Assembly (NCBI GenBank): GCA_031263605.1
Contig: JAISFM010000153.1
Location: 1 to 15,709, forward strand
Length of the DNA stretch: 15,709 nt
Source: Clostridiales bacterium
GTDB lineage: Bacteria; Bacillota; Clostridia; Christensenellales; DUVY01
Direction: 5' to 3'
Shown here: positions 2-15,354 of the stretch, piece after piece
How positions within the stretch are numbered: the first letter of the stretch is position 1
Layout of the letters: each line of letters starts with the position of its first letter
Translations under genes and position numbers: made by a program
The notes under the pieces: generated by a model
What the model was told of the DNA's origin: nothing
Databases searched by the model: none
The model's input: only the letters and a program-made list of their open reading frames with translations

Positions 2-976
2 GGCGTACTCGCCCTGTCCGTCGGCGCGGTCTTTTTGAACGCGGCGATCCCCGCCGACGCGGCGGCGGGCGGCTACGCGTGGTCGGAAAGCGCGGCGTTC
101 GCCCCCGATTTAGGGCCGTCGGCCGAAATGGGGGAGGATGGGCTGCGAATTCTGATCCTCACCGACCAACATTATACGCGCGTGTTCGGCGACGGCAAAA
201 CCGACCGCCTCGCGGACGCTTTGATACGGGACGAGCGGCCGGATTTGATTTTGCTGCTGGGCGACCAATGCTTTACGCCGTTCAACCGTTCCGCTTATAA
301 ACGCCTTATCGCGTTTATGGACGCGCGGAAAATCCCATGGGCGGCGATCTTCGGCAACCACGACGAGCAGGGCAAAGCGACAAAAAACCTGTTGGCGGAC
401 ATGCTGTCGAAATCCGAATATTGTTTGTTCCGGTACGGGCCGAATAATATCGGCGGCGCGGGCAATTACTTTGTCCGTTTGACGAGCGGCGGGCGGGACG
501 TCCACACCCTTTATTTTTTGGATTCCACGGTTAAAAAGGACGGGCATTACCAGCCGCCGACCGAGGGGCAGGTCCGTTGGTACGAATGGGCGGTACGCGG
601 CATGGCAGCCGAGGCGGGCGGGGTCGTCCCCTCTACGCTGCTGATCCATATCCCGCTGCCCGAATACGCGGCCGCATACGACGCGGCGGCGGCAAACGGG
701 GGCGTCGTTTACGGGCAGCGGAGGGAAAAGGAATGCGCGTCCGACGTCAATTCCGGCCTGTTTGAAAAGATCGGGGGTTTAGGCTCGACGAAAGGCGTCT
801 TTTGCGGCCACGACCATGTCAACGATTATTCGGTGATGCACGAGGGGGTTCGGCTGACTTACGCGCTGTCGTCGGGATTCGGCTCCTACGGCGACAGAAA
901 CGTCAAGGGCGGGACGGTTTTGACGGTGCGCCCCGACGGGGCGACGGAACAGGCACAGGTCTTTTTTAAAGGGTAG
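2..976 (+). CDS. Calcineurin-like metallophosphoesterase, 5'-partial. The reading frame is open to the window start, and the N-terminal hydrophobic stretch GVLALSVGAVFL suggests a signal or TM anchor.
   Basis: Metallophosphoesterase motifs are present in order: ILTDQHY (D-x-H), LLGDQ (GD), GNHDE (GNH[DE]) and GHDHVND (GH-x-H). The frame is open from nt 2, so the listed M at 35 is a TTG inside a longer frame. Confidence 0.75.
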   Translation, partial: GVLALSVGAVFLNAAIPADAAAGGYAWSESAAFAPDLGPSAEMGEDGLRILILTDQHYTRVFGDGKTDRLADALIRDERPDLILLLGDQCFTPFNRSAYKRLIAFMDARKIPWAAIFGNHDEQGKATKNLLADMLSKSEYCLFRYGPNNIGGAGNYFVRLTSGGRDVHTLYFLDSTVKKDGHYQPPTEGQVRWYEWAVRGMAAEAGGVVPSTLLIHIPLPEYAAAYDAAAANGGVVYGQRREKECASDVNSGLFEKIGGLGSTKGVFCGHDHVNDYSVMHEGVRLTYALSSGFGSYGDRNVKGGTVLTVRPDGATEQAQVFFKG

Positions 977-3397: not shown

Positions 3398-4015
3398 TTA
3401 GCGGTTTCCGGTTCGGGGCCTTTGATAGTTCGGGTTTTTTATCTTGATCCACGCCTCGGCGCGCCGCCCGGGGAAATACTGCCCGTCCGACCGTTTGGCG
3501 ACAATCCCTTCTAAATTTTCCCGCGCGGCCGCTTGGAACAACGCTTTGCCCGCCGACGGGAAAACGTCGGTCAATTCGATATTGGCGAAATTCGCGCCGG
3601 CGAATAACCTTTCCAATACCTTGCGCCGCTCTTGCCAAGGCCGCTCTGTCAGGGTTTTGCCGTCCGACGCCAAAAGATCGAAAACGGCATAGCGGACGGG
3701 GGTTTCCTTTAAAAACCGCGCGGACGGTTTTTCGACCCGGTCGCGTTTTAGCAAACGATAGAAATCGGGCCGTCCGTCCGCGTTCAGCGCGATAATTTCG
3801 CCGTCCAAAACAACTTTGCGGTTTAAGTTTTTTAATTCGGCGGCGATTTCGGTATAGGTATTCGTTCGCCCGTGCCCCCGGCGGTTGACAAGGCGCGCGT
3901 CCCCGTCCCCGCAATAGGCCAGCATCCTCACGCCGTCGAATTTCAATTCAAAAACATAATCAGGGCTGTCGAACGCTTTTTCCGCCCTCGACAGCAGCAT
4001 CGGTTTAAATTCCAT
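3398..4015 (-). CDS. ATP-dependent DNA ligase, nucleotidyltransferase domain only (205 aa). It ends immediately after motif V. There is no OB domain and no recognisable SD, so it may be a truncated remnant or pseudogene.
   Basis: Motif I is KFDGVR (KxDGxR). FDLL (III), EGIVAK (IV) and WIKIK (V) are in the canonical order. The reverse complement of 4016-4035 shows no GGAGG. Confidence 0.65.
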   Translation of the reverse strand: MEFKPMLLSRAEKAFDSPDYVFELKFDGVRMLAYCGDGDARLVNRRGHGRTNTYTEIAAELKNLNRKVVLDGEIIALNADGRPDFYRLLKRDRVEKPSARFLKETPVRYAVFDLLASDGKTLTERPWQERRKVLERLFAGANFANIELTDVFPSAGKALFQAAARENLEGIVAKRSDGQYFPGRRAEAWIKIKNPNYQRPRTGNR

Positions 4016-5604: not shown

Positions 5605-6294
5605 ATGTCTAAACAAACTAAGGAACTGTACGAAAAACTGATGCGGCTGCAACGGATTTTGCGCCGCTTCCAATTCCACACCAAAATCGCCAACGGGCCC
5701 ATGAGCGACACGGCGCAAGGGCAGGGCAGGGTCATGGCTATCCTGAAAATGCGCCCCGAAATAAGTGTGGGCGACCTGGCCTATTTGTTGGGGATACGCG
5801 CGTCCTCGCTGAACGAACTCCTCAACCGGCTGGAAAAGGGCGGCTATATCACCCGGACGGCCTCGGAGGAGGACAAGCGCGTCGTCATCGTGCGCCTGAC
5901 CGAAAAGGGCAAAAACGAGGAACTGCCCGACACCGGCGTCGAATCCATGTTCGATTGCCTGAACGAGGGCGAACGCAAAACCCTTGGGGAATACCTCGAC
6001 CGGATTTTGGCCGCGCTGAAGGACAAGGTGGGCGACGAGCGCGACGATTTCGACCTGATGAAGGCCTTGCGGCAACGCAAGGGCGAACAATTCGGGCGCG
6101 ACTTCGAGCGTTTCGGCAGAGGCGTAGAACGGTTCGGCGAGGACTTTGAGCGCAAAATGCGCGGGTTCTTCGACGGCTTTCACGGGGGAGAGGATGCCGA
6201 TTGCGCGGAGGATCCCGACGACGGCGCAGAGGCCGGCGAAAAGCGCGGCGATAACGACGGCGAAGGGCAGGACGACGGCGGCAAAGTGGATTAA
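5605..6294 (+). CDS. MarR family transcriptional regulator with a C-terminal acidic low-complexity extension containing FGRDFERFG / VERFGEDFER repeats
   Basis: AAGGAGGG RBS. The winged-HTH core is GDLAYLLGIRASSLNELLNRLEKGGYITR...DKRVVIVRLTEKG. The last ~80 aa are D/E/G/R-rich. Confidence 0.8.
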   Translation: MSKQTKELYEKLMRLQRILRRFQFHTKIANGPMSDTAQGQGRVMAILKMRPEISVGDLAYLLGIRASSLNELLNRLEKGGYITRTASEEDKRVVIVRLTEKGKNEELPDTGVESMFDCLNEGERKTLGEYLDRILAALKDKVGDERDDFDLMKALRQRKGEQFGRDFERFGRGVERFGEDFERKMRGFFDGFHGGEDADCAEDPDDGAEAGEKRGDNDGEGQDDGGKVD

Positions 6295-6317
6295 GGTTTT
6301 TTGAAGGGGGGGGCGGC

Positions 6318-6543
6318 ATGAGCGGGGCTGTAATGGCGCGGAAAAAATCCCGCGCTGTCCCGCATGCTGCCGATGACCTATTGCTTGGATTTGTGCCGCG
6401 CGGTCGTTTGCGCGGGGGCGCCGGAATACGCCGACGTAGTACTGTTCGACCCGTGGGTCAATTTCGCCGCGATAGCGGGCTTGACGGCGGTGTTTTTGGT
6501 TTTAGGCGCGTTCTTTTTTGCGAGGGCGGCAAAGAAGAAATAG
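6318..6543 (+). pseudogene. Small membrane protein gene interrupted by an apparent +1 frameshift at an A6 run (6342-6347). ATG 6318 has a strong GAAGGGGGGGG RBS but runs into a Gly/Arg-rich non-coding-looking frame. The +1 frame (6334-6543) encodes ...MLPMTYCLDLCRAVVCAGAPEYADVVLFDPWVNFAAIAGLTAVFLVLGAFFFARAAKKK, with GC3-rich, hydrophobic, coding-like codon usage.
   Basis: RBS position and codon bias (GC3) were compared between the two frames. A homopolymer lies at the frame junction. The 59-aa +1-frame ORF falls below the ORF-track cutoff. Confidence 0.4.
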
Positions 6544-6593
6544 TAATTTTGCGATAAACGGATCGGACGGCCGATAAAACCCGTTTCGCGCGT

Positions 6594-6622
6594 TTGCCGA
6601 AACAAAAAAAATGTGGTATAAT
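6594..6622 (+). promoter_or_regulatory. Promoter: -35 TTGCCG (6594-6599), 17-bp spacer, extended -10 TGgTATAAT (6614-6622)
   Basis: Canonical spacing. It is followed about 25 nt later by a terminator-like hairpin, and the tRNA gene lies ~120 nt downstream. Confidence 0.5.
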
Positions 6623-6645
6623 TTATGCGTCGGTTTGCAAGGCGG

Positions 6646-6684
6646 CACGCGCCGTTCGATGAGGACCGGCGCGTAAATTTTTTT
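6646..6684 (+). terminator. Terminator-like hairpin (gcacgcgccg...cggcgcgt) followed by aaaTTTTTTT
   Basis: 8-9 bp GC stem plus T7 run. It could terminate the marR/small-ORF transcript, or define a ~55-nt transcript from the 6594-6622 promoter. Confidence 0.5.
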
Positions 6685-6741
6685 AACGGGCGTTTTCTTA
6701 ACGTATGCCCGCCGAAAAAAACAAGCGCGCAAATCTTTTAT

Positions 6742-6816
6742 TGGGGTGTAGCCAAGCGGTAAGGCACGGGACTTTGACTCCCGCATTCGTAGGTTCAAAT
6801 CCTCCCACCCCAGCCA
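6742..6816 (+). tRNA. tRNA-Gln (anticodon TTG)
   Basis: Cloverleaf folded by hand. Acceptor tggggtg/cacccca. Anticodon stem cggga/tcccg with loop cTTTGac (U33, A37). T-loop ttcaaat. Discriminator g plus encoded CCA. There is one T-stem mismatch and a 3-bp D-stem. Confidence 0.8.
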
Positions 6817-6930
6817 GATTGATCAAGCGAAACCCGGTTGCAAACCGAGCGAAACGCCCAGTTCAAGCGATATGCGGAAATGCGGAAATATGAGTTGTCC
6901 CTAACCTCTTTGGGGCCGTTGCGGGATGGA

Positions 6931-7920
6931 TTATTTTTGCGGCGTATGCATAAGCCGGAGTTGTTTTGCCAACCGTTCTTTGATTTGGCCTACAAAGCCT
7001 TGCGGGCTTAGGACTTTTACGGTGGGGCCGAAAGACAGTATCCGAATGAGCAATTCCGTTTCATCCGCAATATCGTAAGAGAGTTGGCAGGTATAAATAC
7101 CGCGATCGGGGTCATATTCGGTTTTGCGGTCAAAAGAGGCGAATTGCAACAGGAAACGTTCCAACGCATTCCGCTCCTTCGTGATTTCAAGCGTTATCGG
7201 CGGATTGGCATTCGGTTCTGTGAACAATTTGCGCACGATTTCCGGCGGCGCGCGGTGCGGCAAGCCCGACGGCTCAACCGAAACGATTCTGCCGAGATTT
7301 AAGGTTACTTTATTCAATTTTTGCGTTTTGGCGTTGAATGCGGCGCACAGCAGGCGGAATTTATCGTTAAGAGATGAATAACTTAATTTGAACGGGTGAT
7401 AGGCGCGTTGCGACCGCCCGACCCTTTCGCTGTGATAAACGATTGCGACGGGATACTTGTTTTTGCAGGCTTTTAGCAGTTCACGGAAGTTGGCGATATA
7501 AGCCGGGTCGCCGTAAGGGTCTCCGTCAAGGTGGCGGTCAACGGAAATAAAATCGCCCGCGTCAAAGGCGGGGGCGACGCCGCTTAACGCCCGCGCCAGC
7601 GTCGCCAGAGTTTCATCGCTTAAAAACAACCTTATGCGCGGGTCGGACAATAACGCTTTCAGCCACGATAATTCAAGTTGCGTCAGCGGCCGGATCGGCT
7701 GCGCGTCCAATTTTGAATAGTATAAATCGCCGCGCTTTTCCAGAAAGTTCCAGTCGCCGTCCAAAAGTTCGGGCAACAGGTGGAATGCCGTCTCGGAAAA
7801 ACCGTGTTCGCTTACGACGGCGTCGATATCTTTTTTGGAGACGCCGCCGCCGGCGCGCTTAACAATACGCGAAACTATGCCGTAGTAGCAGCCGTACAGT
7901 TCGGAAAACAGTTTACTCAT
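6931..7920 (-). CDS. WYL domain-containing protein, 329 aa (PafC-like partner). A WYL-like core (FRLLCAAF...LNLGRIVSVEP) is followed by a WCX-like C-terminus (ELLIRILSFGPTVKVLSPQGFVGQIKERL). Start at ATG 7920 with a GGGAGGAGG RBS, overlapping the upstream gene's stop by 8 nt.
   Basis: The C-terminal ILSFGP.V.VL.P motif is characteristic of WYL/WCX regulators. The N-terminus is paralogous to the upstream gene (MSKLFSEL vs MAEFSEL). The ORF-track M at 8007 lacks an RBS, so internal M30 with a strong SD is chosen. Confidence 0.65.
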   Translation of the reverse strand: MSKLFSELYGCYYGIVSRIVKRAGGGVSKKDIDAVVSEHGFSETAFHLLPELLDGDWNFLEKRGDLYYSKLDAQPIRPLTQLELSWLKALLSDPRIRLFLSDETLATLARALSGVAPAFDAGDFISVDRHLDGDPYGDPAYIANFRELLKACKNKYPVAIVYHSERVGRSQRAYHPFKLSYSSLNDKFRLLCAAFNAKTQKLNKVTLNLGRIVSVEPSGLPHRAPPEIVRKLFTEPNANPPITLEITKERNALERFLLQFASFDRKTEYDPDRGIYTCQLSYDIADETELLIRILSFGPTVKVLSPQGFVGQIKERLAKQLRLMHTPQK

Positions 7921-9145
7921 CGCCCGCCTCCTCCCGTATCCCGTACATCTCGGCCATGCGGCGGATATCGGCGGCCAGTTTTTTTTCAAGCCGGTCGGTC
8001 GATTCAAAAGATATAAGTCTGCCGATAAAAGTTTTTACCCACGGCATCGCTTCGTTAGCGTCGAATATATCCTTGGAAAACTTAAAAGTATTGTCGCCGA
8101 CGCGCTCGAACGCGCCGCCGCGCCCTTCCTTGTTTATCCTGCTTATAATATGCTTTTCACGGTTCTCGTCGATGCGCAGGGTCATAGAAAACCCCCTTTC
8201 GTTCCTTGAATCGCCGTCGAATGAAACGCCCCAGACCCTGCCGATGTTTCGGGAGAGGGATTCCTGTATTTCCATATAGTTTTCGACCGGTTCTAAGGCC
8301 GCGACGGATTTGATTGCGTCGAGGCGGTAGGTTGAAAACCTGCGGGAGGCGGGGAGGTACGCGCAAAGGTAGCGGCGGCCGCTCCAAAAACTGCACAGGA
8401 TTTTTGCGGGCACGACTCTGTTTTTTACCGGTTTCCCGCTTTTTGCGCCGACGAGTACGGCCTCGATTTCTTTATGTTCGCGCAGGGCGTCCAGAATATC
8501 GAAAAGGATTCCGTCTTCAAGCGTGTGCGCTATGTAATGGTGCTTGAACACGAATAAATCGTTTTCACAGCCGGTATTGTCCAAGATATAGTCGCCGATT
8601 ATGCCCAAGGCGCCGCTTTGGAAAAATTTGACGGCGTCCAAGATTTCGTCGTCTAAATTTACGGTGTTTTTTGATAGGCTGTAACGGAACGCTTTGCCGT
8701 TCTTTTCTTTGGTCAGAATGCCCAATCCCGCGTACTCGGCGCACTTGCCGCGCACGGTTTGCAGGTCAAAGAAGTTGCCGCTTTTAGCCGATATTTCATC
8801 GGTCAATTCGTCCGCCGACTTATCGCCGGTTTGCAACGCGTCCAAAATGTAAAAGTGCAGCATAATATCGTTGCCTGTGAAACTCTTGCTTTTCCACGCC
8901 GCGAATAAAGGGTTGGCGGGGATTTTTCCGCAATCCGCGGAAACGAACGAAACCTTACTGCCGCCGGCATAAGCCCATTTGAAGTTTTCGCCTAAATAAC
9001 TTTCGCAGCGGCGTTTTTCGTTATCGTATGTGCGGGCGGATTTCAATGAAAAATCATCGCGCGCCTTAAACCCGTATATGTAAAAGTCGCGCATAAAGTC
9101 TCTGATTTTATTGAAGTTTTTAATGAGTTCCGAAAATTCCGCCAT
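7913..9145 (-). CDS. WYL domain-containing protein, 410 aa (PafB-like partner). WYL motif: PAKILCSFWSGRRYLCAYLPASRRFSTYRLDAIKSV. C-terminus: MPWVKTFIGRLISFESTDRLEKKL.
   Basis: Start at ATG 9145 (GAGGT RBS), chosen over the ORF-track start at 9262. WYL consensus is wYLvay...r..R.frLdRI. It is translationally coupled (8-nt overlap) to the downstream WYL paralog. Confidence 0.65.
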   Translation of the reverse strand: MAEFSELIKNFNKIRDFMRDFYIYGFKARDDFSLKSARTYDNEKRRCESYLGENFKWAYAGGSKVSFVSADCGKIPANPLFAAWKSKSFTGNDIMLHFYILDALQTGDKSADELTDEISAKSGNFFDLQTVRGKCAEYAGLGILTKEKNGKAFRYSLSKNTVNLDDEILDAVKFFQSGALGIIGDYILDNTGCENDLFVFKHHYIAHTLEDGILFDILDALREHKEIEAVLVGAKSGKPVKNRVVPAKILCSFWSGRRYLCAYLPASRRFSTYRLDAIKSVAALEPVENYMEIQESLSRNIGRVWGVSFDGDSRNERGFSMTLRIDENREKHIISRINKEGRGGAFERVGDNTFKFSKDIFDANEAMPWVKTFIGRLISFESTDRLEKKLAADIRRMAEMYGIREEAGDE

Positions 9146-9214
9146 AGCGTACAACCTCGAACTATGCGTACATATTGTATCAAAAAAACGCGCGCAAGTC
9201 AAAGTAACGGAAGG

Positions 9215-9270
9215 CTCGCAAACTTTTTTATACGCAAAACCGTGTTTTTCGGGTTTTCGCAAACTTTTCT
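9215..9270. promoter_or_regulatory. Divergent intergenic region with direct repeats, a candidate operator for the WYL pair or the rtcB promoter. The repeats are ctcgcaaactttttta (9215-9230) and ttcgcaaacttttct (9256-9270), plus cgcaaaac at 9233-9240.
   Basis: Repeats are spaced ~41 bp apart (about four helical turns) between the WYL-B start (9145) and the rtcB start (9342). TTGATA and TATAAT-like hexamers are present at 9291-9312. Confidence 0.4.
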
Positions 9271-9341
9271 ATTCGGTAATTATAGATCGGGCTTGATATA
9301 ATGGCGGTATAATCAAAACGATCAAACGGAGGGCAAAAGCA

Positions 9342-10574
9342 ATGTTCACGGTAAAAAACAAAAAAATGAAGTTTCCGATTAAGGCTTGGCTTAAAAACAG
9401 AAGCCAAACGGAAGAGGGGTGTTTGGAGCAGGCCATGCGCCTTGCCGAGATGCCGTTTTTACATAAATGGGTCGCCCTTATGCCCGACGCGCATGTCGGA
9501 ATGGGAATGCCTATCGGCGGCGTTATCGCTGCGAAAGGCGTTGTAATCCCGAACGCGGTCGGCGTCGATATCGGGTGCGGCATGGCTTATGCGGGGACGG
9601 ATATCAGGGTTGCGGAGGTACGGGGAATCGCCACAGGCAACGGGCCGTTCATGCAGGCCCTTGTGGGGGATATACTCCGCAACATTCCGGTCGGCTTTAA
9701 CCGCCATAAGACAAAACAGGCTTGCGCCGCTTTGGACAAGGCGGCCGCCGAGGCGGATAAATACGCGGCGAACCCCGAACTTGCCCGGGAGATAGAAAAC
9801 GGATACTATCAAGCCGGAACGTTGGGCGGCGGCAATCATTTTATCGAAATTCAGGAATCCGACGACGGATTTTTGGGAATCATGATCCATTCGGGCAGCC
9901 GCAACTTCGGAAAGCAAATATGCGACTATTATCATAAAGCCGCCCGCGCGCTCAACGAAAAGTGGTACGCGCCTATTCCCGACGAATGGCGGCTGGCGTT
10001 CTTGCCGATCGACAGCAAGGAAGGGAAACAATATATCGACTGGATGAATCTTGCGCTTGACTTTGCCTATGAAAACCGCGCGTTGATGTTGAAGGCGACG
10101 CAAAACATACTGGACAGGATGATGCAAAAATACGCGCATGCCGACTATAAGTATACGGACGAGATTAACTGCCACCACAATTACGCCGCTATCGAGCATC
10201 ATTATGACGCGAACGTCTGGGTTCACCGTAAGGGCGCGACAAGGGCGAGAGCGGGCGAGAGGGCTGTAATCCCCGGAGCGATGGGCTCTTACAGTTATAT
10301 CGTCGAGGGATTAGGGAATGCGGAAAGTTTTTGTTCGAGTTCTCACGGCGCGGGCAGGCGGTATTCCCGTAAGGGCGCGACGGAAGCGTTTACGGCCGAA
10401 CAGGTACTGCGCGACTTAAAGGGGCAAGGCGTTGTGTTGGGCAAAAACAACAAAGCCGACGTCGCCGAAGAAAGCCGCTTCGCGTACAAGGACATAGACG
10501 AAGTTATGAGCAATCAAAAAGACCTCGTTAAAGCCGTAACGCGCTTGAAAACCGTGGGCGTCGTAAAGGGCTGA
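9342..10574 (+). CDS. rtcB: RNA ligase RtcB (3'-phosphate/5'-OH RNA-splicing ligase), 410 aa
   Basis: GGAGGG RBS. Hallmark segments: PDAHVGMGMPIGGV, GVDIGCGM, GGGNHFIEIQ, HSGSRNFG, CHHNYA, and SSHGAGR containing the nucleophilic His. Confidence 0.9.
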   Translation: MFTVKNKKMKFPIKAWLKNRSQTEEGCLEQAMRLAEMPFLHKWVALMPDAHVGMGMPIGGVIAAKGVVIPNAVGVDIGCGMAYAGTDIRVAEVRGIATGNGPFMQALVGDILRNIPVGFNRHKTKQACAALDKAAAEADKYAANPELAREIENGYYQAGTLGGGNHFIEIQESDDGFLGIMIHSGSRNFGKQICDYYHKAARALNEKWYAPIPDEWRLAFLPIDSKEGKQYIDWMNLALDFAYENRALMLKATQNILDRMMQKYAHADYKYTDEINCHHNYAAIEHHYDANVWVHRKGATRARAGERAVIPGAMGSYSYIVEGLGNAESFCSSSHGAGRRYSRKGATEAFTAEQVLRDLKGQGVVLGKNNKADVAEESRFAYKDIDEVMSNQKDLVKAVTRLKTVGVVKG

Positions 10575-10599: not shown

Positions 10600-10760
10600 C
10601 CTAAAATACATCTGTTATTATCCTATACGGACGGTTTCTATGCCGTCGTGGTGCCCTTCGTCTCTGACCGTCGGGTATGCCGGATAGTAATAGGCCCCCG
10701 CGGTTGGGATTACCGCTCCGAGACAGTATGCGGGTTCGATTCCCGCGCCAAGTAATTGGA
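10600..10760 (+). ncRNA. Candidate tRNA-like/Y-RNA-like (YrlA-type) non-coding RNA downstream of rtcB. It contains a canonical T-arm gcggg-TTCGATT-cccgc (10730-10746) and a plausible anticodon-like hairpin gcggt-tgggatt-accgc (10700-10716). No complete cloverleaf or acceptor stem could be folded.
   Basis: A T-arm consensus (GGTTCGATTCC) sits in a 500-nt gene-free region immediately 3' of rtcB. The minus-strand ORF 10618..10926 translates to ...GAGIEPA..., the classic artefact of reading a tRNA T-arm in reverse. Module boundaries are uncertain. Confidence 0.35.
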
Positions 10761-11080
10761 TGTTGGCAACAGAAAGCGGCCTGATAAGCCACAGTATTTG
10801 AAACTGTTCAAGGAAAACCGGATTTGAAGCAAGGGCTTCCGGCGCGTTCGCCAAAGCGGGCAATGCCCGTAGCGGCGATGCGCGCGGCGGCTTTCTTGTC
10901 CGCGGCGCGGGGATACCGTTCGGCAAACCTTAAACCCATAACGCTTTTTACGAAAGGCGCACGCCGGATAAGGCCGCCCGAACTCAACCGCCGCCCCACA
11001 AAAAAGGCGCGGAAGCCTTTGCGGAAAATCTTATTCAAACACAAAAACAACAAAAAAACAAATTTAGGAGAAGCGGAGAA

Positions 11081-12184
11081 ATGAAAATCATCATCCATCA
11101 AAACGAGCGCGGTTTCTTATTCAAGAACGGTACATACAAGAGGATGCTGCAACCCGGCAAAAACAAGGTAAATACTTTTTTAGGCGAGACCTTTGTGCGC
11201 GTCGGTTTGGACAAACCGGTTAAGGTCGCCGGTACGGATACGGAGATTTTAATGCGGGACGCGGAGTTTGCCGCAAGCGTGTTAAAGGTTGACGTCCCCG
11301 ACGGCTGTTTCGGCGCGGTTTTCAAGGACAACTGCATCAAGGACATCTATAAGGCGGGTAGTCATGTCTTTTTCAACCTCTACGGCAACCTGTCTTTCAA
11401 ATTGATCGACATTTCCAAGGTGGAGGTTGAGGACCTGACCCCTTCGCAGATTGACAGCCTGCCGAAAGGCCTTTACAAAAAGATTGTCGTTGCCGAGGGC
11501 GAGGTGGGTTTGTTAAATCTTGACGGTAAGTTTGTCCGTGAACTGAAAGCGGGCGCGTACTGCTTTTGGGATGCTTATACCGCCGTAACTTGCGAGAAGG
11601 TCGATTTGCGCTCTCAGGAACTGGAAATTAACGGTCAAGAGATTTTGACCGCCGATAAGGTATCTTTGCGCGTAAACTTTATCGCGAACTACCGCGTCAC
11701 GGACGCCGTTAAAATCACCGGAGAGGTCAAGAACTACAAGGAGCGCATCTATACGGTTACGCAACTGGCTTTGCGCGAGTATATCGGCAAGTTCCGTTTC
11801 GACGAACTTTTGGAACAGAAAGAGAATATCGCGTCAAGCGTTTTGACCCAACTTCAAGCAAAGTTCGGCGAATATTGCGTTGAGTTTACGGGCGCGGGCT
11901 TAAAGGACATCGTCCTGCCCGGCGAGATTCGGGACATCATGAACACCGTTCTGATTGCCGAGAAAAACGCTCAAGCCAACGTTATCGCCCGTCGCGAGGA
12001 GGTCGCGTCCACCCGGAGTTTGCTTAACACGGCCAAACTTTTGGACGAAAACGCCACGCTTTACAGGTTAAAGGAAATGGAATATTTAGAAAAAATCTGC
12101 GACAAGGTCGGCACAATCTCCGTCGGCGGCGGCAGCCTCTTAACCGAACTTCAAAAAATCGTCGGCGCGCCCCGGGCTAAATAG
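11081..12184 (+). CDS. SPFH/band-7 (stomatin/prohibitin/flotillin-like) domain protein, 367 aa
   Basis: AGGAGAAGCGGAGAA RBS. SPFH-like core: LREYIGKFRFDELLEQKENI...IVLPGEIRDIMNTVLIAEKNAQANVIARREE. Confidence 0.6.
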   Translation: MKIIIHQNERGFLFKNGTYKRMLQPGKNKVNTFLGETFVRVGLDKPVKVAGTDTEILMRDAEFAASVLKVDVPDGCFGAVFKDNCIKDIYKAGSHVFFNLYGNLSFKLIDISKVEVEDLTPSQIDSLPKGLYKKIVVAEGEVGLLNLDGKFVRELKAGAYCFWDAYTAVTCEKVDLRSQELEINGQEILTADKVSLRVNFIANYRVTDAVKITGEVKNYKERIYTVTQLALREYIGKFRFDELLEQKENIASSVLTQLQAKFGEYCVEFTGAGLKDIVLPGEIRDIMNTVLIAEKNAQANVIARREEVASTRSLLNTAKLLDENATLYRLKEMEYLEKICDKVGTISVGGGSLLTELQKIVGAPRAK

Positions 12185-12521: not shown

Positions 12522-12550
12522 TTGACGGCGGGCGAATTTTAGTATATAAT
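12522..12550 (+). promoter_or_regulatory. Promoter for the rtcB2-prfH operon: -35 TTGACG (12522-12527), 17-bp spacer, -10 TATAAT (12545-12550)
   Basis: Canonical hexamers with correct spacing. A leader ORF and terminator follow. Confidence 0.6.
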
Positions 12551-12671: not shown

Positions 12672-12776
12672 ATGTCTAAAACGGGAATATTCCTTTTTAC
12701 GGCTTGTCTGTTAATCCGCCGCGGCTTTGGCGATTTTTAGGCAAGCCGTTTTCATATGTCAATAAAAAAGGAATTT

Positions 12777-13850
12777 ATGAATACAAATAACAAATTGACT
12801 ATCGTCTCGGACGATAAAAACTGGATGGAGGGCAGCGCGGTAAATCAAGCCCGTGAGGTTTGCAATCTTGACGGGGTTCAAGCCGTGTTCGCTATGCCCG
12901 ACCTTCACGCGGGCAAAACGCCCGTAGGGGTAGTCGTCATCACAAAGGGCAAAATCTACCCTCATTTAATCGGCTCGGATATCGGTTGCGGAATGAGTAT
13001 ATTCTCGACCGGCGTCGAGAGCAAAAGAATCAAAACGGACAGGTGGGTTAGCCGCCTTAACACGATCAAAACCTTGGCGGCGGTTCCGAATAGCGAATAC
13101 CGTTTCGATTGCCCGATACCGGATTTCGGAAGCATAGGCTCCGGCAACCATTTCGCCGAGTTTCAAGCAATCCACGAGGTCTTTGACGCGGGCGGTTTGG
13201 CGGCTCTGGCAATGGACAAATCCGAACTTTTTATGACCGTTCACAGTGGATCGAGAAGTTACGGGAGTAAAATCTTGCAAGAGTTTAACGACCGCAACGG
13301 CTACGCCGCGGACGGCAAAGAGGCAAAAGGATATCTGGAAAAACACGGCGACGCTCTTTTTTGGGCGGCAAAGAACAGGTATGAGTCGGCAAAGAAGTTA
13401 ATCGATTACTTGGGCTTTTCGCAAGCGGTAGAGCGCAAACTGGAATGCGGCCATAATTTTTTGGAGCGGTCCGGCGGCTTGTATTATCACCGCAAGGGAG
13501 TTGTGTCCGCTCAAACCGGCGCAGTGCTTATCGCGGGTTCGAGAGGGACGCTCAGTTACATCGTAAGGCCGACGGCTAAATGCGCGGAGTACGGTTACAG
13601 TTTGGCGCACGGTAGCGGCAGGAAATGGGCGCGCAGTATGTGTAAGCCCCGCATTCGGGAAAAGTACACCTTGGAAACAATCAAGCGGAACAAGTTCGGC
13701 GGCCAACTGGTTTGCCACGATTACGGTTTGCTGTTCGAGGAAGCGCCGGACGCGTACAAGAATGTGGACGTTATTATTGCCGTATTGGAACGGTACGGCA
13801 TGATTGAGCGCGTCGCCGCCCTCAAACCTGTGCTTACTTTTAAGGGTTAG
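12777..13850 (+). CDS. rtcB2: RtcB-family RNA ligase paralog (release factor H-coupled RtcB2), 357 aa. ATG 12777 with an AAGGA RBS is preferred to ATG 12756.
   Basis: RtcB motifs: MPDLHAGKTPVGVVV, GSDIGCGM, GSGNHFAEFQ, HSGSRSYG, CGHNF, and AHGSGRK containing the nucleophilic His. It sits immediately upstream of prfH. Confidence 0.85.
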   Translation: MNTNNKLTIVSDDKNWMEGSAVNQAREVCNLDGVQAVFAMPDLHAGKTPVGVVVITKGKIYPHLIGSDIGCGMSIFSTGVESKRIKTDRWVSRLNTIKTLAAVPNSEYRFDCPIPDFGSIGSGNHFAEFQAIHEVFDAGGLAALAMDKSELFMTVHSGSRSYGSKILQEFNDRNGYAADGKEAKGYLEKHGDALFWAAKNRYESAKKLIDYLGFSQAVERKLECGHNFLERSGGLYYHRKGVVSAQTGAVLIAGSRGTLSYIVRPTAKCAEYGYSLAHGSGRKWARSMCKPRIREKYTLETIKRNKFGGQLVCHDYGLLFEEAPDAYKNVDVIIAVLERYGMIERVAALKPVLTFKG

Positions 13851-13864
13851 GGGGGGAGGAGCGT

Positions 13865-14476
13865 ATGTTATACCACATAACGGCGGGGCGCGGCCCTGCG
13901 GAATGCGAACTTGCGGTCGGAAGGTTTCTGGCCGTTTTGGCCGCCGAGACGGACGTTGAGGTTTTGGCGAAGGCGGAAGGGCGGTACGCGGGCTGCCTGA
14001 AATCCGCGCTTGTGAGGGCGGGCATAAACGGCCCGCCCTTGCAAGGCACGGTGCAATGGATATGCAGAAGCCCGTTCCGCCCTAACCACAAGAGAAAGAA
14101 TTGGTTTATCGGCGTTAACCGAATGGACGAGCCGAAAGATTGCGGTTATGAAATCGGCGGCGGCGGCGGCGTGGTTTTTCAGACCTTCGGCGCGAGCGGC
14201 AAGGGCGGGCAGCACGTAAACAAAACGGAATCCGCCGTCCGCGCCATCCATATCGCAACGGGGCTTACGGCGACCGCAAGCGGCGAGCGCAGCCAACATC
14301 AGAACAAGAAAACCGCCGTGGAGCGGTTGAATGAGTTGCTTCGGCAACGGGAGGACAGCCGGGATCTTTCCGAAAAGGGCGCGCTCTTTTTCAACCATAA
14401 TAACCTGTCCCGCGGCAGCCCCGCGCGGATATACGAGGGTATCGGCTTTAAGCGGATTACAGGAGATACAACATGA
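13865..14476 (+). CDS. prfH: Peptide chain release factor H (PrfH): a short RF homolog with the GGQ motif, lacking the codon-recognition domain 1. 203 aa.
   Basis: GGAGGAG RBS. SGKGGQHVNKTESAVRAIHIATG is the class-I RF peptidyl-hydrolase GGQ loop. The ~200 aa size and rtcB paralog adjacency match the RtcB2-PrfH module. Confidence 0.85.
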   Translation: MLYHITAGRGPAECELAVGRFLAVLAAETDVEVLAKAEGRYAGCLKSALVRAGINGPPLQGTVQWICRSPFRPNHKRKNWFIGVNRMDEPKDCGYEIGGGGGVVFQTFGASGKGGQHVNKTESAVRAIHIATGLTATASGERSQHQNKKTAVERLNELLRQREDSRDLSEKGALFFNHNNLSRGSPARIYEGIGFKRITGDTT

Positions 14477-15354
14477 GGATTATTTCAAATTTTAAGGACT
14501 ACTACGACTTTGCGGGCTTTGCCGCGCGTGACGGCGATTATAGGGAAACCGTATACTTGCGCAAGCCCGCGTTAAAAGTAACGGACGTGCCGCAGGAATA
14601 TGCCGACGCCAATCCTCAAAATTATTACGGCGGCGGCTTGGACGCGGTTACATCGAAGTGGTGGACGAAAAACAAAAAGGTATTTTCTTTGCCCGATACG
14701 CCCGGCGGCGCGCGGCCGGGCTGCCTTTTTGTATGCGGTAAAGCCTATCCGTTTTTATTCCTGCGCGGGGCGGCTCGAATCGGCGCGGACGGTAAAGGCG
14801 GGCAAATTAGGTTTTCAAAGTATTTTAACGACGCTATCAAAGACAGTATCGCTAAAAAGCGGGAAAAGCATAATTGGGAGCGCGATAGAAAAGACGAGGA
14901 CGAATTCAATTTTTTTAGAGTTTATTATTCTATGCGTGAATTTTTTGAGGACGCGACGGCCGAAAAGCATACCGTTTATTATTCCCGACGGTATAGATCG
15001 GATAATTTAGAGCGCGACCTAACGCGATTCTTTGACTTTTATGAGGGCAAAGATTTTACCGAGTTGCATTTGCGTTTGGATTGCCCGATTTTCCTTACGC
15101 TTTTTCAGGAAAGCGGAGTTAGGCGGGGCGATTTACGGCGCGAATACGAATTTGTTTTAAATCCGAACCTCTATGAATTTGATTTCGCAAGGGTTATGAG
15201 CGGCGATATTTTAGCGCAGGAACTGGATATGTTTTTAGGGAACGCGCTTGTCAAGGACAGTATGCCGCTTTCATACCAGTCCGATATCGATAAACTGACG
15301 GCATACGGTTTCGACGCCGTAACGTCGTTTCGGACTATAAAAGACAAGAAATAG
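14473..15354 (+). CDS. Hypothetical protein, 293 aa. Its start overlaps the prfH stop (ATGA), making it the third gene of the rtcB2-prfH operon.
   Basis: The 4-nt overlap implies translational coupling. GC3-rich coding-like usage. No recognisable motif. Confidence 0.6.
   Translation: MRIISNFKDYYDFAGFAARDGDYRETVYLRKPALKVTDVPQEYADANPQNYYGGGLDAVTSKWWTKNKKVFSLPDTPGGARPGCLFVCGKAYPFLFLRGAARIGADGKGGQIRFSKYFNDAIKDSIAKKREKHNWERDRKDEDEFNFFRVYYSMREFFEDATAEKHTVYYSRRYRSDNLERDLTRFFDFYEGKDFTELHLRLDCPIFLTLFQESGVRRGDLRREYEFVLNPNLYEFDFARVMSGDILAQELDMFLGNALVKDSMPLSYQSDIDKLTAYGFDAVTSFRTIKDKK

Follow-up and report, generated by a model that had tools for sequence, protein, structure and literature searches.

A coupled pair of WYL-domain proteins linked to RtcB-type RNA repair genes in Clostridia, and a conserved 22-nt promoter box as its predicted operator

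INTRODUCTION

Regulators built from a winged helix-turn-helix (wHTH), a WYL domain, and a WCX domain have been described in several bacterial systems. In actinobacterial PafBC, a heterodimeric activator of the DNA damage response, one HTH binds DNA while the other contacts sigma domain 4, and single-stranded DNA (ssDNA) lies in a tunnel across both WYL domains. Caulobacter DriD, an ssDNA-activated homodimer, binds symmetric sites that overlap an absent −35 element at a constant distance from the −10 and recruits RNA polymerase. CapW and BrxR share the three-domain fold and are encoded beside the genes that they control. To our knowledge, induction of RtcB-type RNA repair is understood only for proteobacterial RtcR, and Firmicutes have no obvious equivalent. 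Here, we analyze two adjacent genes, A and B, that are divergent from rtcB in a 15,709-nt contig from a Clostridiales metagenome-assembled genome (GenBank assembly GCA_031263605.1, contig JAISFM010000153.1; hereafter, the window). We consider it fairly probable that their products form a ligand-gated, heteromeric transcription factor that works through a 22-base site, probably to activate the RNA repair operon.

A first-pass annotation of the window had proposed that a WYL pair controlling RNA repair would be an unreported wiring. This was too strong: work from the Aravind laboratory (PMC9503650; 2022) proposes that CARF and WYL factors sensing cyclic-phosphate RNAs regulate RNA repair pathways, citing Burroughs and Aravind (2016) for the WYL factors. 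Our literature search on WYL proteins in connection with RtcB or RNA repair yielded no experimental work, and most matches just cite Makarova 2014. As far as we checked, what goes beyond the accessible literature is the obligate two-gene pair, the box with its promoter geometry, and the exchange of Band-7 for a DUF2828-vWA protein under the same control. A and B are a new family within a known type of regulator, not a new kind of system.

RESULTS

A and B form a conserved gene pair linked to rtcB

Genes A and B were first noted as tandem, overlapping genes divergent from rtcB, and this arrangement holds: the A stop codon lies inside the B start in an 8-nt overlap, and 196 bp (9146 to 9341) separate A from rtcB (Table 1). 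The overlap suggests translational coupling. Shine-Dalgarno-like GAGG and GGAGG precede the start codons of A and B, and both starts are credible because homologues align from residue 1. Each protein is 100% identical to an NCBI entry titled "WYL domain-containing protein."

Scanning one genome per species, we recovered 80 loci with A, chiefly in Lachnospiraceae, Anaerocolumna, Clostridium, and Eubacterium but also in Dielma and one Phascolarctobacterium. B lay directly 3′ of A at ~76 of these 80 loci, mostly at most 20 nt away, and RtcB, Band-7, or a DUF2828-vWA protein adjoined the pair at most of them. Gene order varied by group. The closest relatives (A at least 48% identical) carried Band-7 and RtcB pointing away from A and B (Band7<, RtcB<, A>, B>); Lachnospiraceae encoded a 514-aa DUF2828+DUF7788 (vWA) protein between RtcB and A, or alone beside A; and a third group had A>, B>, then Band7 or DUF2828>, and RtcB>. 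The SPFH/Band-7 gene was a conserved partner in 20 loci. Because the genes around the pair and the repair genes were otherwise unrelated between loci, we take the unit to be the WYL pair plus the RNA repair genes. A and B are thus a conserved, tightly coupled gene pair linked to rtcB in ~80 genomes, as well as in over 100 metagenome loci, and the association with rtcB first seen in a single contig is borne out by neighborhoods across Clostridia. No second conserved regulator gene besides A and B was found at these loci, and profile searches found no CARF sensor or sigma-54 AAA+ activator in any window open reading frame (ORF). RtcB is absent within 8 kb at some loci (e.g., L031, L084, and L085), as would be expected if the adjacency were coincidental and the pair regulated genes elsewhere in the genome. 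However, the linkage recurs across Clostridia families, in unrelated neighborhoods and in several gene orders, and we give that explanation almost no credence.

Both proteins are predicted wHTH-WYL-WCX regulators

A WYL-like core had been proposed for each protein, and profile searches agreed in part. Pfam WYL matched A at residues 214 to 281 (E = 1.4 × 10−5), exceeding the gathering score, and a single PADLOC WYL model matched both A (5.5 × 10−10) and B (8.5 × 10−14). For B, the Pfam scores fell under their cutoffs, at 16.1 bits for WYL and at 22.6 bits (cutoff 23.9) for WCX at residues 274 to 319. Pfam and NCBIfam searches returned neither an HTH match nor a family name for A or B. The ILSFGP-type C-terminal motif, initially read in both proteins, is full in B (IRILSFGPTVKVLSP) but a mere remnant in A (GRLISFEST).

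Neither single-sequence nor profile searches of the PDB went beyond marginal matches, and fold comparison was needed. AlphaFold2 models of A and B were built from 48 and 50 homologues, respectively (predicted local distance difference test [pLDDT], 69.5 for A and 85.4 for B). The A model comprised a conserved N-terminal region (residues 1 to 90), a confidently modeled winged helix (~91 to 157), a helical linker, a WYL domain (~225 to 286), and a WCX domain (~319 to 400). The B model comprised a winged helix (3 to 69), linker helices (81 to 111), a WYL barrel (158 to 217), and a WCX domain (242 to 325; ILSFGPTVKVLSP). The segments modeled as winged helices were H-H-H-beta-beta units in both proteins. 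Foldseek comparison with the PDB gave, for both A and B, full-length matches to DriD, PafBC, CapW, BrxR, and WYL1 (6oaw); the best match of A was DriD (E = 6.5 × 10−10), and that of B was RNA polymerase-bound PafBC (9fnd_Y; E = 1.2 × 10−12), with DriD at a TM score of ~0.55. The WCX domain of A is assigned from the fold only, and that of B from the near-cutoff Pfam score, the ILSFGP motif, and the fold. On these models, A and B are wHTH-WYL-WCX regulators, with winged helices supported at the fold level.

The N-terminal region of A is the best-conserved part of the protein (mean top-residue frequency of 0.82, versus 0.57 to 0.69 elsewhere). These 90 residues (window positions 8876 to 9145, reverse strand) hold many invariant Arg, Lys, and aromatic residues, with no separate counterpart module in B.

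The two proteins had also been described as paralogues with similar N termini. An F-S-E-[LI] motif near the N terminus is indeed near-invariant in both families, and the WYL domains can be aligned, but the relationship is not close: BLASTP between A and B was not significant (E = 0.32), and profile-profile alignment with hhalign joined only the WYL domains (E = 7 × 10−5; probability, 63%). Because only these domains align, A and B are, judged by sequence, only distant paralogues, whereas PafB and PafC are close ones.

A 22-nt asymmetric box has a fixed position in the repair promoter

The direct cgcaaac repeats first noticed in the A-rtcB spacer are real and are part of a 22-nt asymmetric box. 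Read toward the repair genes, the box is TTCGCAA(A)CTTTTTTnAAATGAT, i.e., TTCGCAA(A)CTTTTTT[G/T/A]AAATGAT. In the window, 19-nt copies at 9216 to 9234 and 9257 to 9275 lie 41 bp apart, a spacing that recurs in five related loci. The repeats within this window alone were statistically not compelling; conservation of the box across loci is decisive for their being meaningful. The box has an invariant half (TTCGCAAC) and a clade-dependent half (AAATGAT, ATTCGAT, ATACGC, or CCAAGAT); it contains TTCGCAAAC and, like the PafBC motif, is nonpalindromic. Reading the box as a sigma-70 −35/−10 pair was rejected, its halves being only ~8 nt apart.

The box was found upstream of A in 60 of ~80 loci (at least 60 with box) and elsewhere only where repair genes lie. 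When RtcB, DUF2828, or Band-7 is placed after B or apart from A (L038, L061, L064, and L071 to L080), the box shifts and flips with it. Because its place and orientation track the repair genes, we assign the box to the repair promoter rather than to gene A. Within the window, there was no box upstream of band7 or rtcB2. Anchoring 87 distinct sequences on the box revealed an extended −10 (TGnTAnnnT) at a constant distance after it. The box thus spans ~−52 to −31, with ATGATT, a poor match to TTGACA, at the −35 position, and the repair promoter is sigma-70-like with an extended −10 and a poor −35. At many loci, the box overlaps the −35 regions of both divergent promoters, and in Lachnospiraceae it also lies over that of the A promoter. 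We predict that the box is an operator-like site.

The relationship was also examined in reverse. We scanned metagenomes for the 22-mer alone and examined 108 loci. A was encoded at 65 of the 72 box-selected loci with at least 1.5 kb upstream. Among the 96 loci with 700 nt or more downstream, 85 had RtcB, DUF2828, or Band-7 starting within 1.2 kb in the box direction. One group of exceptions consisted of chance matches within unrelated genes. These results bear on the idea that A and B are RNA-binding accessories of the repair machinery, comparable to WYL1 with Cas13d, and that the box is a promoter element or the site of another factor. WYL1 (6oaw) is among the structural matches, and A begins with 90 strongly conserved, basic residues of no assigned fold. 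Nevertheless, the idea is very improbable, given winged helices and the full regulator architecture in both proteins, co-occurrence of box and pair at 90% of box-selected loci, and no other conserved regulator gene.

Placement of the box also bears on the sign of regulation. A/B could act as a repressor that sits on the box and silences both its own promoter and the repair promoter until a ligand releases it. CapW and BrxR, which have the same fold, are repressors; the box covers the −35 of both divergent promoters at many loci; and the TGn extended −10 could allow activator-independent transcription. CapW/BrxR-type repression therefore remains a serious alternative to activation. However, the poor ATGATT at the −35 position and the strict box-to-−10 distance, a signature described for the activator DriD, argue against it, and we think repression unlikely. 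CapW and BrxR differ further from A/B in being homodimers with palindromic sites that control CBASS or BREX rather than RNA repair. DriD resembles A/B in its fold and in a site placed over a missing −35 at an unvarying distance from the −10, but A/B would combine two different subunits with an asymmetric site, the kind of site that a PafBC-like heterodimer should have.

The initial comparison with PafBC holds in part. Both systems consist of two adjacent genes, each encoding wHTH-WYL-WCX, and both have a nonpalindromic promoter motif in place of a proper −35; adjacency and coupling of the genes are shared. In contrast, close paralogy, host, and regulon are not: PafBC is actinobacterial, lies at the proteasome/Pup locus, and serves DNA repair, whereas A/B is clostridial, has no proteasome locus, and is linked to RNA repair. 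A carries the extra conserved 90-residue N-terminal region, and the A/B box is farther upstream than the −26 motif of PafBC. Neither A nor B is a PafBC orthologue.

TABLE 1 Positions of the features discussed in the window
Feature	Position	Strand	Remarks
Gene A	7913..9145	−	410 aa, MAEFSEL...; ATG at 9145, stop at 7913-7915
Gene B	6931..7920	−	329 aa, MSKLFSEL...; ATG at 7920, stop at 6931-6933
A/B overlap	7913..7920	−	8 nt, ATGAGTAA; A stop codon inside B start
rtcB	9342..10574	+	410 aa; Pfam RtcB, E = 2.6 × 10−114; canonical RNA 3′-phosphate/5′-OH ligase
rtcB-proximal box (predicted operator)	9256..9277	+	TTCGCAAACTTTTCTATTCGGT; ~−53 to −32 of rtcB promoter
Distal box	9215..9236	+	CTCGCAAACTTTTTTATACGCA; exactly 41 bp from proximal box
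Predicted rtcB −10 hexamer	9297..9302	+	TATAAT, 19 nt after proximal box; positional consensus
rtcB Shine-Dalgarno	9328-9333	+	GGAGGG
A/B promoter-like site	9174..9202	−	TTGACT, 17-nt spacer, TGaTACAAT; just beyond distal box
Structured tRNA-like/YrlA-like noncoding RNA	~10621..10791	+	T-arm at 10730-10746; D-arm degenerate in window
SPFH/Band-7 protein	11081..12184	+	367 aa; Pfam Band_7, E = 4 × 10−32; predicted scaffold of repair module
Second repair module (RtcB2, PrfH, 293-aa ORF)	12756-15354	+	Not part of the finding
tRNA-Gln	6742-6816	+	tRNA scan of window

The proposed regulated unit includes more than rtcB

Although rtcB, the target first proposed for the pair, is linked to it, the regulated unit appears to be larger and corresponds to a predicted system of RtcB, a tRNA-like RNA, and Band-7. 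Downstream of rtcB, a 506-nt noncoding gap precedes the SPFH/Band-7 gene. Every rtcB-band7 gap contained one to four T-loop motifs (GGTTCGAnTCC), and related loci gave Rfam tRNA or YrlA-like matches. ARAGORN found no tRNA in any of these gaps, and Rfam returned only a 17-nt T-arm match for the noncoding RNA (ncRNA) of the window. Because these scans of the window failed to reveal it, recognition of the RNA required comparative alignment. A ten-locus alignment folds to a conserved structure, with compensatory changes at 23 of its 32 pairs; its elements are, in order, two hairpins, variable arm, T-arm, short hairpin, and D-arm-like GGTTAGCTCAGTGGTAAAGC, permuted as in YrlA. A "band 7-associated tRNA," termed b7a-tRNA, beside RtcB and Band-7 was predicted by Burroughs and Aravind, as quoted in bioRxiv 10.1101/312249. 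The window has rtcB, a tRNA-like RNA, and a Band-7 gene in the same order as that predicted system, differing in its degenerate D-arm, and its ncRNA is probably the predicted, never validated b7a-tRNA. All three components of the repair module, RtcB, Band-7, and the tRNA-like RNA, are present in the window.

The RNA varied in copy number and form among loci. The rtcB-band7 gaps of L013, L022, L018, and L051 held up to four tandem tRNA-like elements, of which one in L013 (6170 to 6232) matched the Rfam tRNA model at 40 bits with a truncated anticodon arm. In L061 (10245 to 10437) and ~34 Lachnospiraceae loci (e.g., L036, L046, and L078), the box precedes a tRNA-like RNA whose anticodon region carries a long insertion, and the 514-aa DUF2828+DUF7788 (vWA) protein comes next, whether RtcB is present or not. 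This protein apparently takes the place of Band-7 as partner. DUF2828 had no sequence relative in the PDB, and we found no usable literature on it.

Other genes also lie behind copies of the box. L043 (boxes at 3464 to 3476, 5788 to 5800, and ~7799), L044, and L045 each carry a topoisomerase III-like gene in the same direction behind extra copies, which suggests regulon membership in some species. In L027, a box precedes a 547-aa protein (5881 to 7524, reverse strand) whose first ~20 residues resemble the RtcB N terminus; neither the rest of this protein nor a 724-aa box-linked protein in L161 had a Pfam match. Searching gut Clostridia for the box could outline the regulon and uncover more repair components; candidates already seen beside it are DUF2828-vWA, the topoisomerase III-like gene, and the proteins without family.

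A model for ligand-gated control of RNA repair

Because the domain architecture and the fixed asymmetric site fit the published behavior of DriD and PafBC, we infer a heteromeric activator with autoregulation. A and B would be made in a coupled fashion and act jointly as a heteromer, their winged helices binding the asymmetric 22-bp box over the −35 of the rtcB/ncRNA/Band-7 promoter; in other clades, the same box would drive the DUF2828-vWA gene. By analogy with DriD and PafBC, a nucleic acid-type ligand at WYL/WCX may free or reposition the winged helices, and liganded A/B would then help RNA polymerase onto the repair promoter, producing activation. The pair would regulate itself at the many loci where the box overlaps its own divergent promoter.

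Several observations weigh against this model. None of the Pfam HTH models matches the N terminus of A or B, and residues 1 to 90 of A are poorly modeled (pLDDT < 50). The second group of exceptions in the scan for the box comprises a few true box-bearing rtcB promoters to which the pair is not adjacent (L091, L100, and L154). The extended −10 promoter could work without an activator, so that the box might just as well serve a repressor (compare CapW and BrxR). In addition, each WYL domain has one PafBC-type arginine, and its ligand chemistry may therefore differ from ssDNA binding.

A retains the equivalent of PafB R211 (R274, invariant) without an equivalent of R214; in B, the first RxxR position is an invariant N208, and the second is R211. 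The arginine pair of PafBC is thus split between two proteins (A residues 274 to 277, R...x; B residues 208 to 211, N...R), and both patterns are kept family-wide. The split arginines could form a single composite site or reflect a ligand other than ssDNA. With the same pair and box, the signal could instead be ssDNA from DNA damage or phage, as in all wHTH-WYL-WCX regulators characterized so far, RNA repair being induced within that response. PafBC, DriD, and CapW, which are the closest structural matches, bind ssDNA at the WYL domain, and the RtcR-controlled Salmonella operon is reported to be induced in the SOS response as well (PMC9879122). However, the regulon found here holds RNA repair components only, the RxxR pair that PafB requires for ssDNA is incomplete in both A and B, and WYL factors are predicted to sense cyclic-ended RNA fragments. 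We regard an ssDNA signal as possible but doubtful, and damaged-RNA fragments are only slightly favored over it.

If the ligand is damaged RNA, A/B would be a direct sensor and thereby the first WYL transcription factor that responds to RNA, as well as a Gram-positive equivalent of RtcR-CARF; this proposal is tentative, and we would not call it probable. Candidate ligands would be tRNA or rRNA fragments ending in a 2′,3′-cyclic phosphate or the operon's own tRNA-like RNA, cleaved and serving as a sentinel, and the split arginines would form one composite RNA-binding tunnel across the heterodimer. WYL sensor chemistry would then widen from ssDNA and nucleotides to damaged RNA, and CARF-based and WYL-based control of RNA repair would be convergent. 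Like A/B, RtcR of Proteobacteria is divergent from an RNA ligase operon and has a sensor domain for a nucleic acid-derived ligand, making the two functional analogues. The folds are unrelated, RtcR being a CARF protein with a sigma-54 AAA+ domain that acts at a sigma-54 promoter, whereas the promoter here is sigma-70-like with an extended −10. The locus is a compact candidate in which two small proteins accompany a 22-bp site, set at a constant position in the promoter, and an output of three parts: ligase, tRNA-like RNA, and SPFH scaffold.

Other features of the window

A second repair module, encoding RtcB2, PrfH, and a 293-aa ORF, lies downstream of Band-7. RtcB2 (release_rtcB type; TIGR03073, 330 bits) and PrfH (TIGR03072, 184 bits) both score above cutoff, and the module has its own sigma-70-like promoter (12522 to 12550) without the box. 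The ATG of the 293-aa ORF overlaps the prfH stop (14473 to 14476); this ORF had no match in the family libraries and no homologue beside PrfH in L063 or L086.

The tRNA-Gln that the first-pass annotation described as abutting the cluster is present. Its adjacency is incidental, because genes after B are unrelated at other loci, and as a part of the system it was rejected for want of conservation across loci. Between the ncRNA and Band-7, the segment at 10817 to 10933 (reverse strand) is 65% G+C and unusually structured; its Pseudomon-groES Rfam match (28.7 bits against a gathering score of 50) is under threshold and probably due to chance. Further ORFs in the window encode a metallophosphoesterase (35 to 976, forward strand), a short 205-aa protein with an ATP-dependent DNA/RNA ligase adenylation domain (3398 to 4015, reverse strand), and a MarR-family regulator whose C-terminal tail is long and acidic (5605 to 6294, forward strand), and near these three lie several ORFs without a family match.

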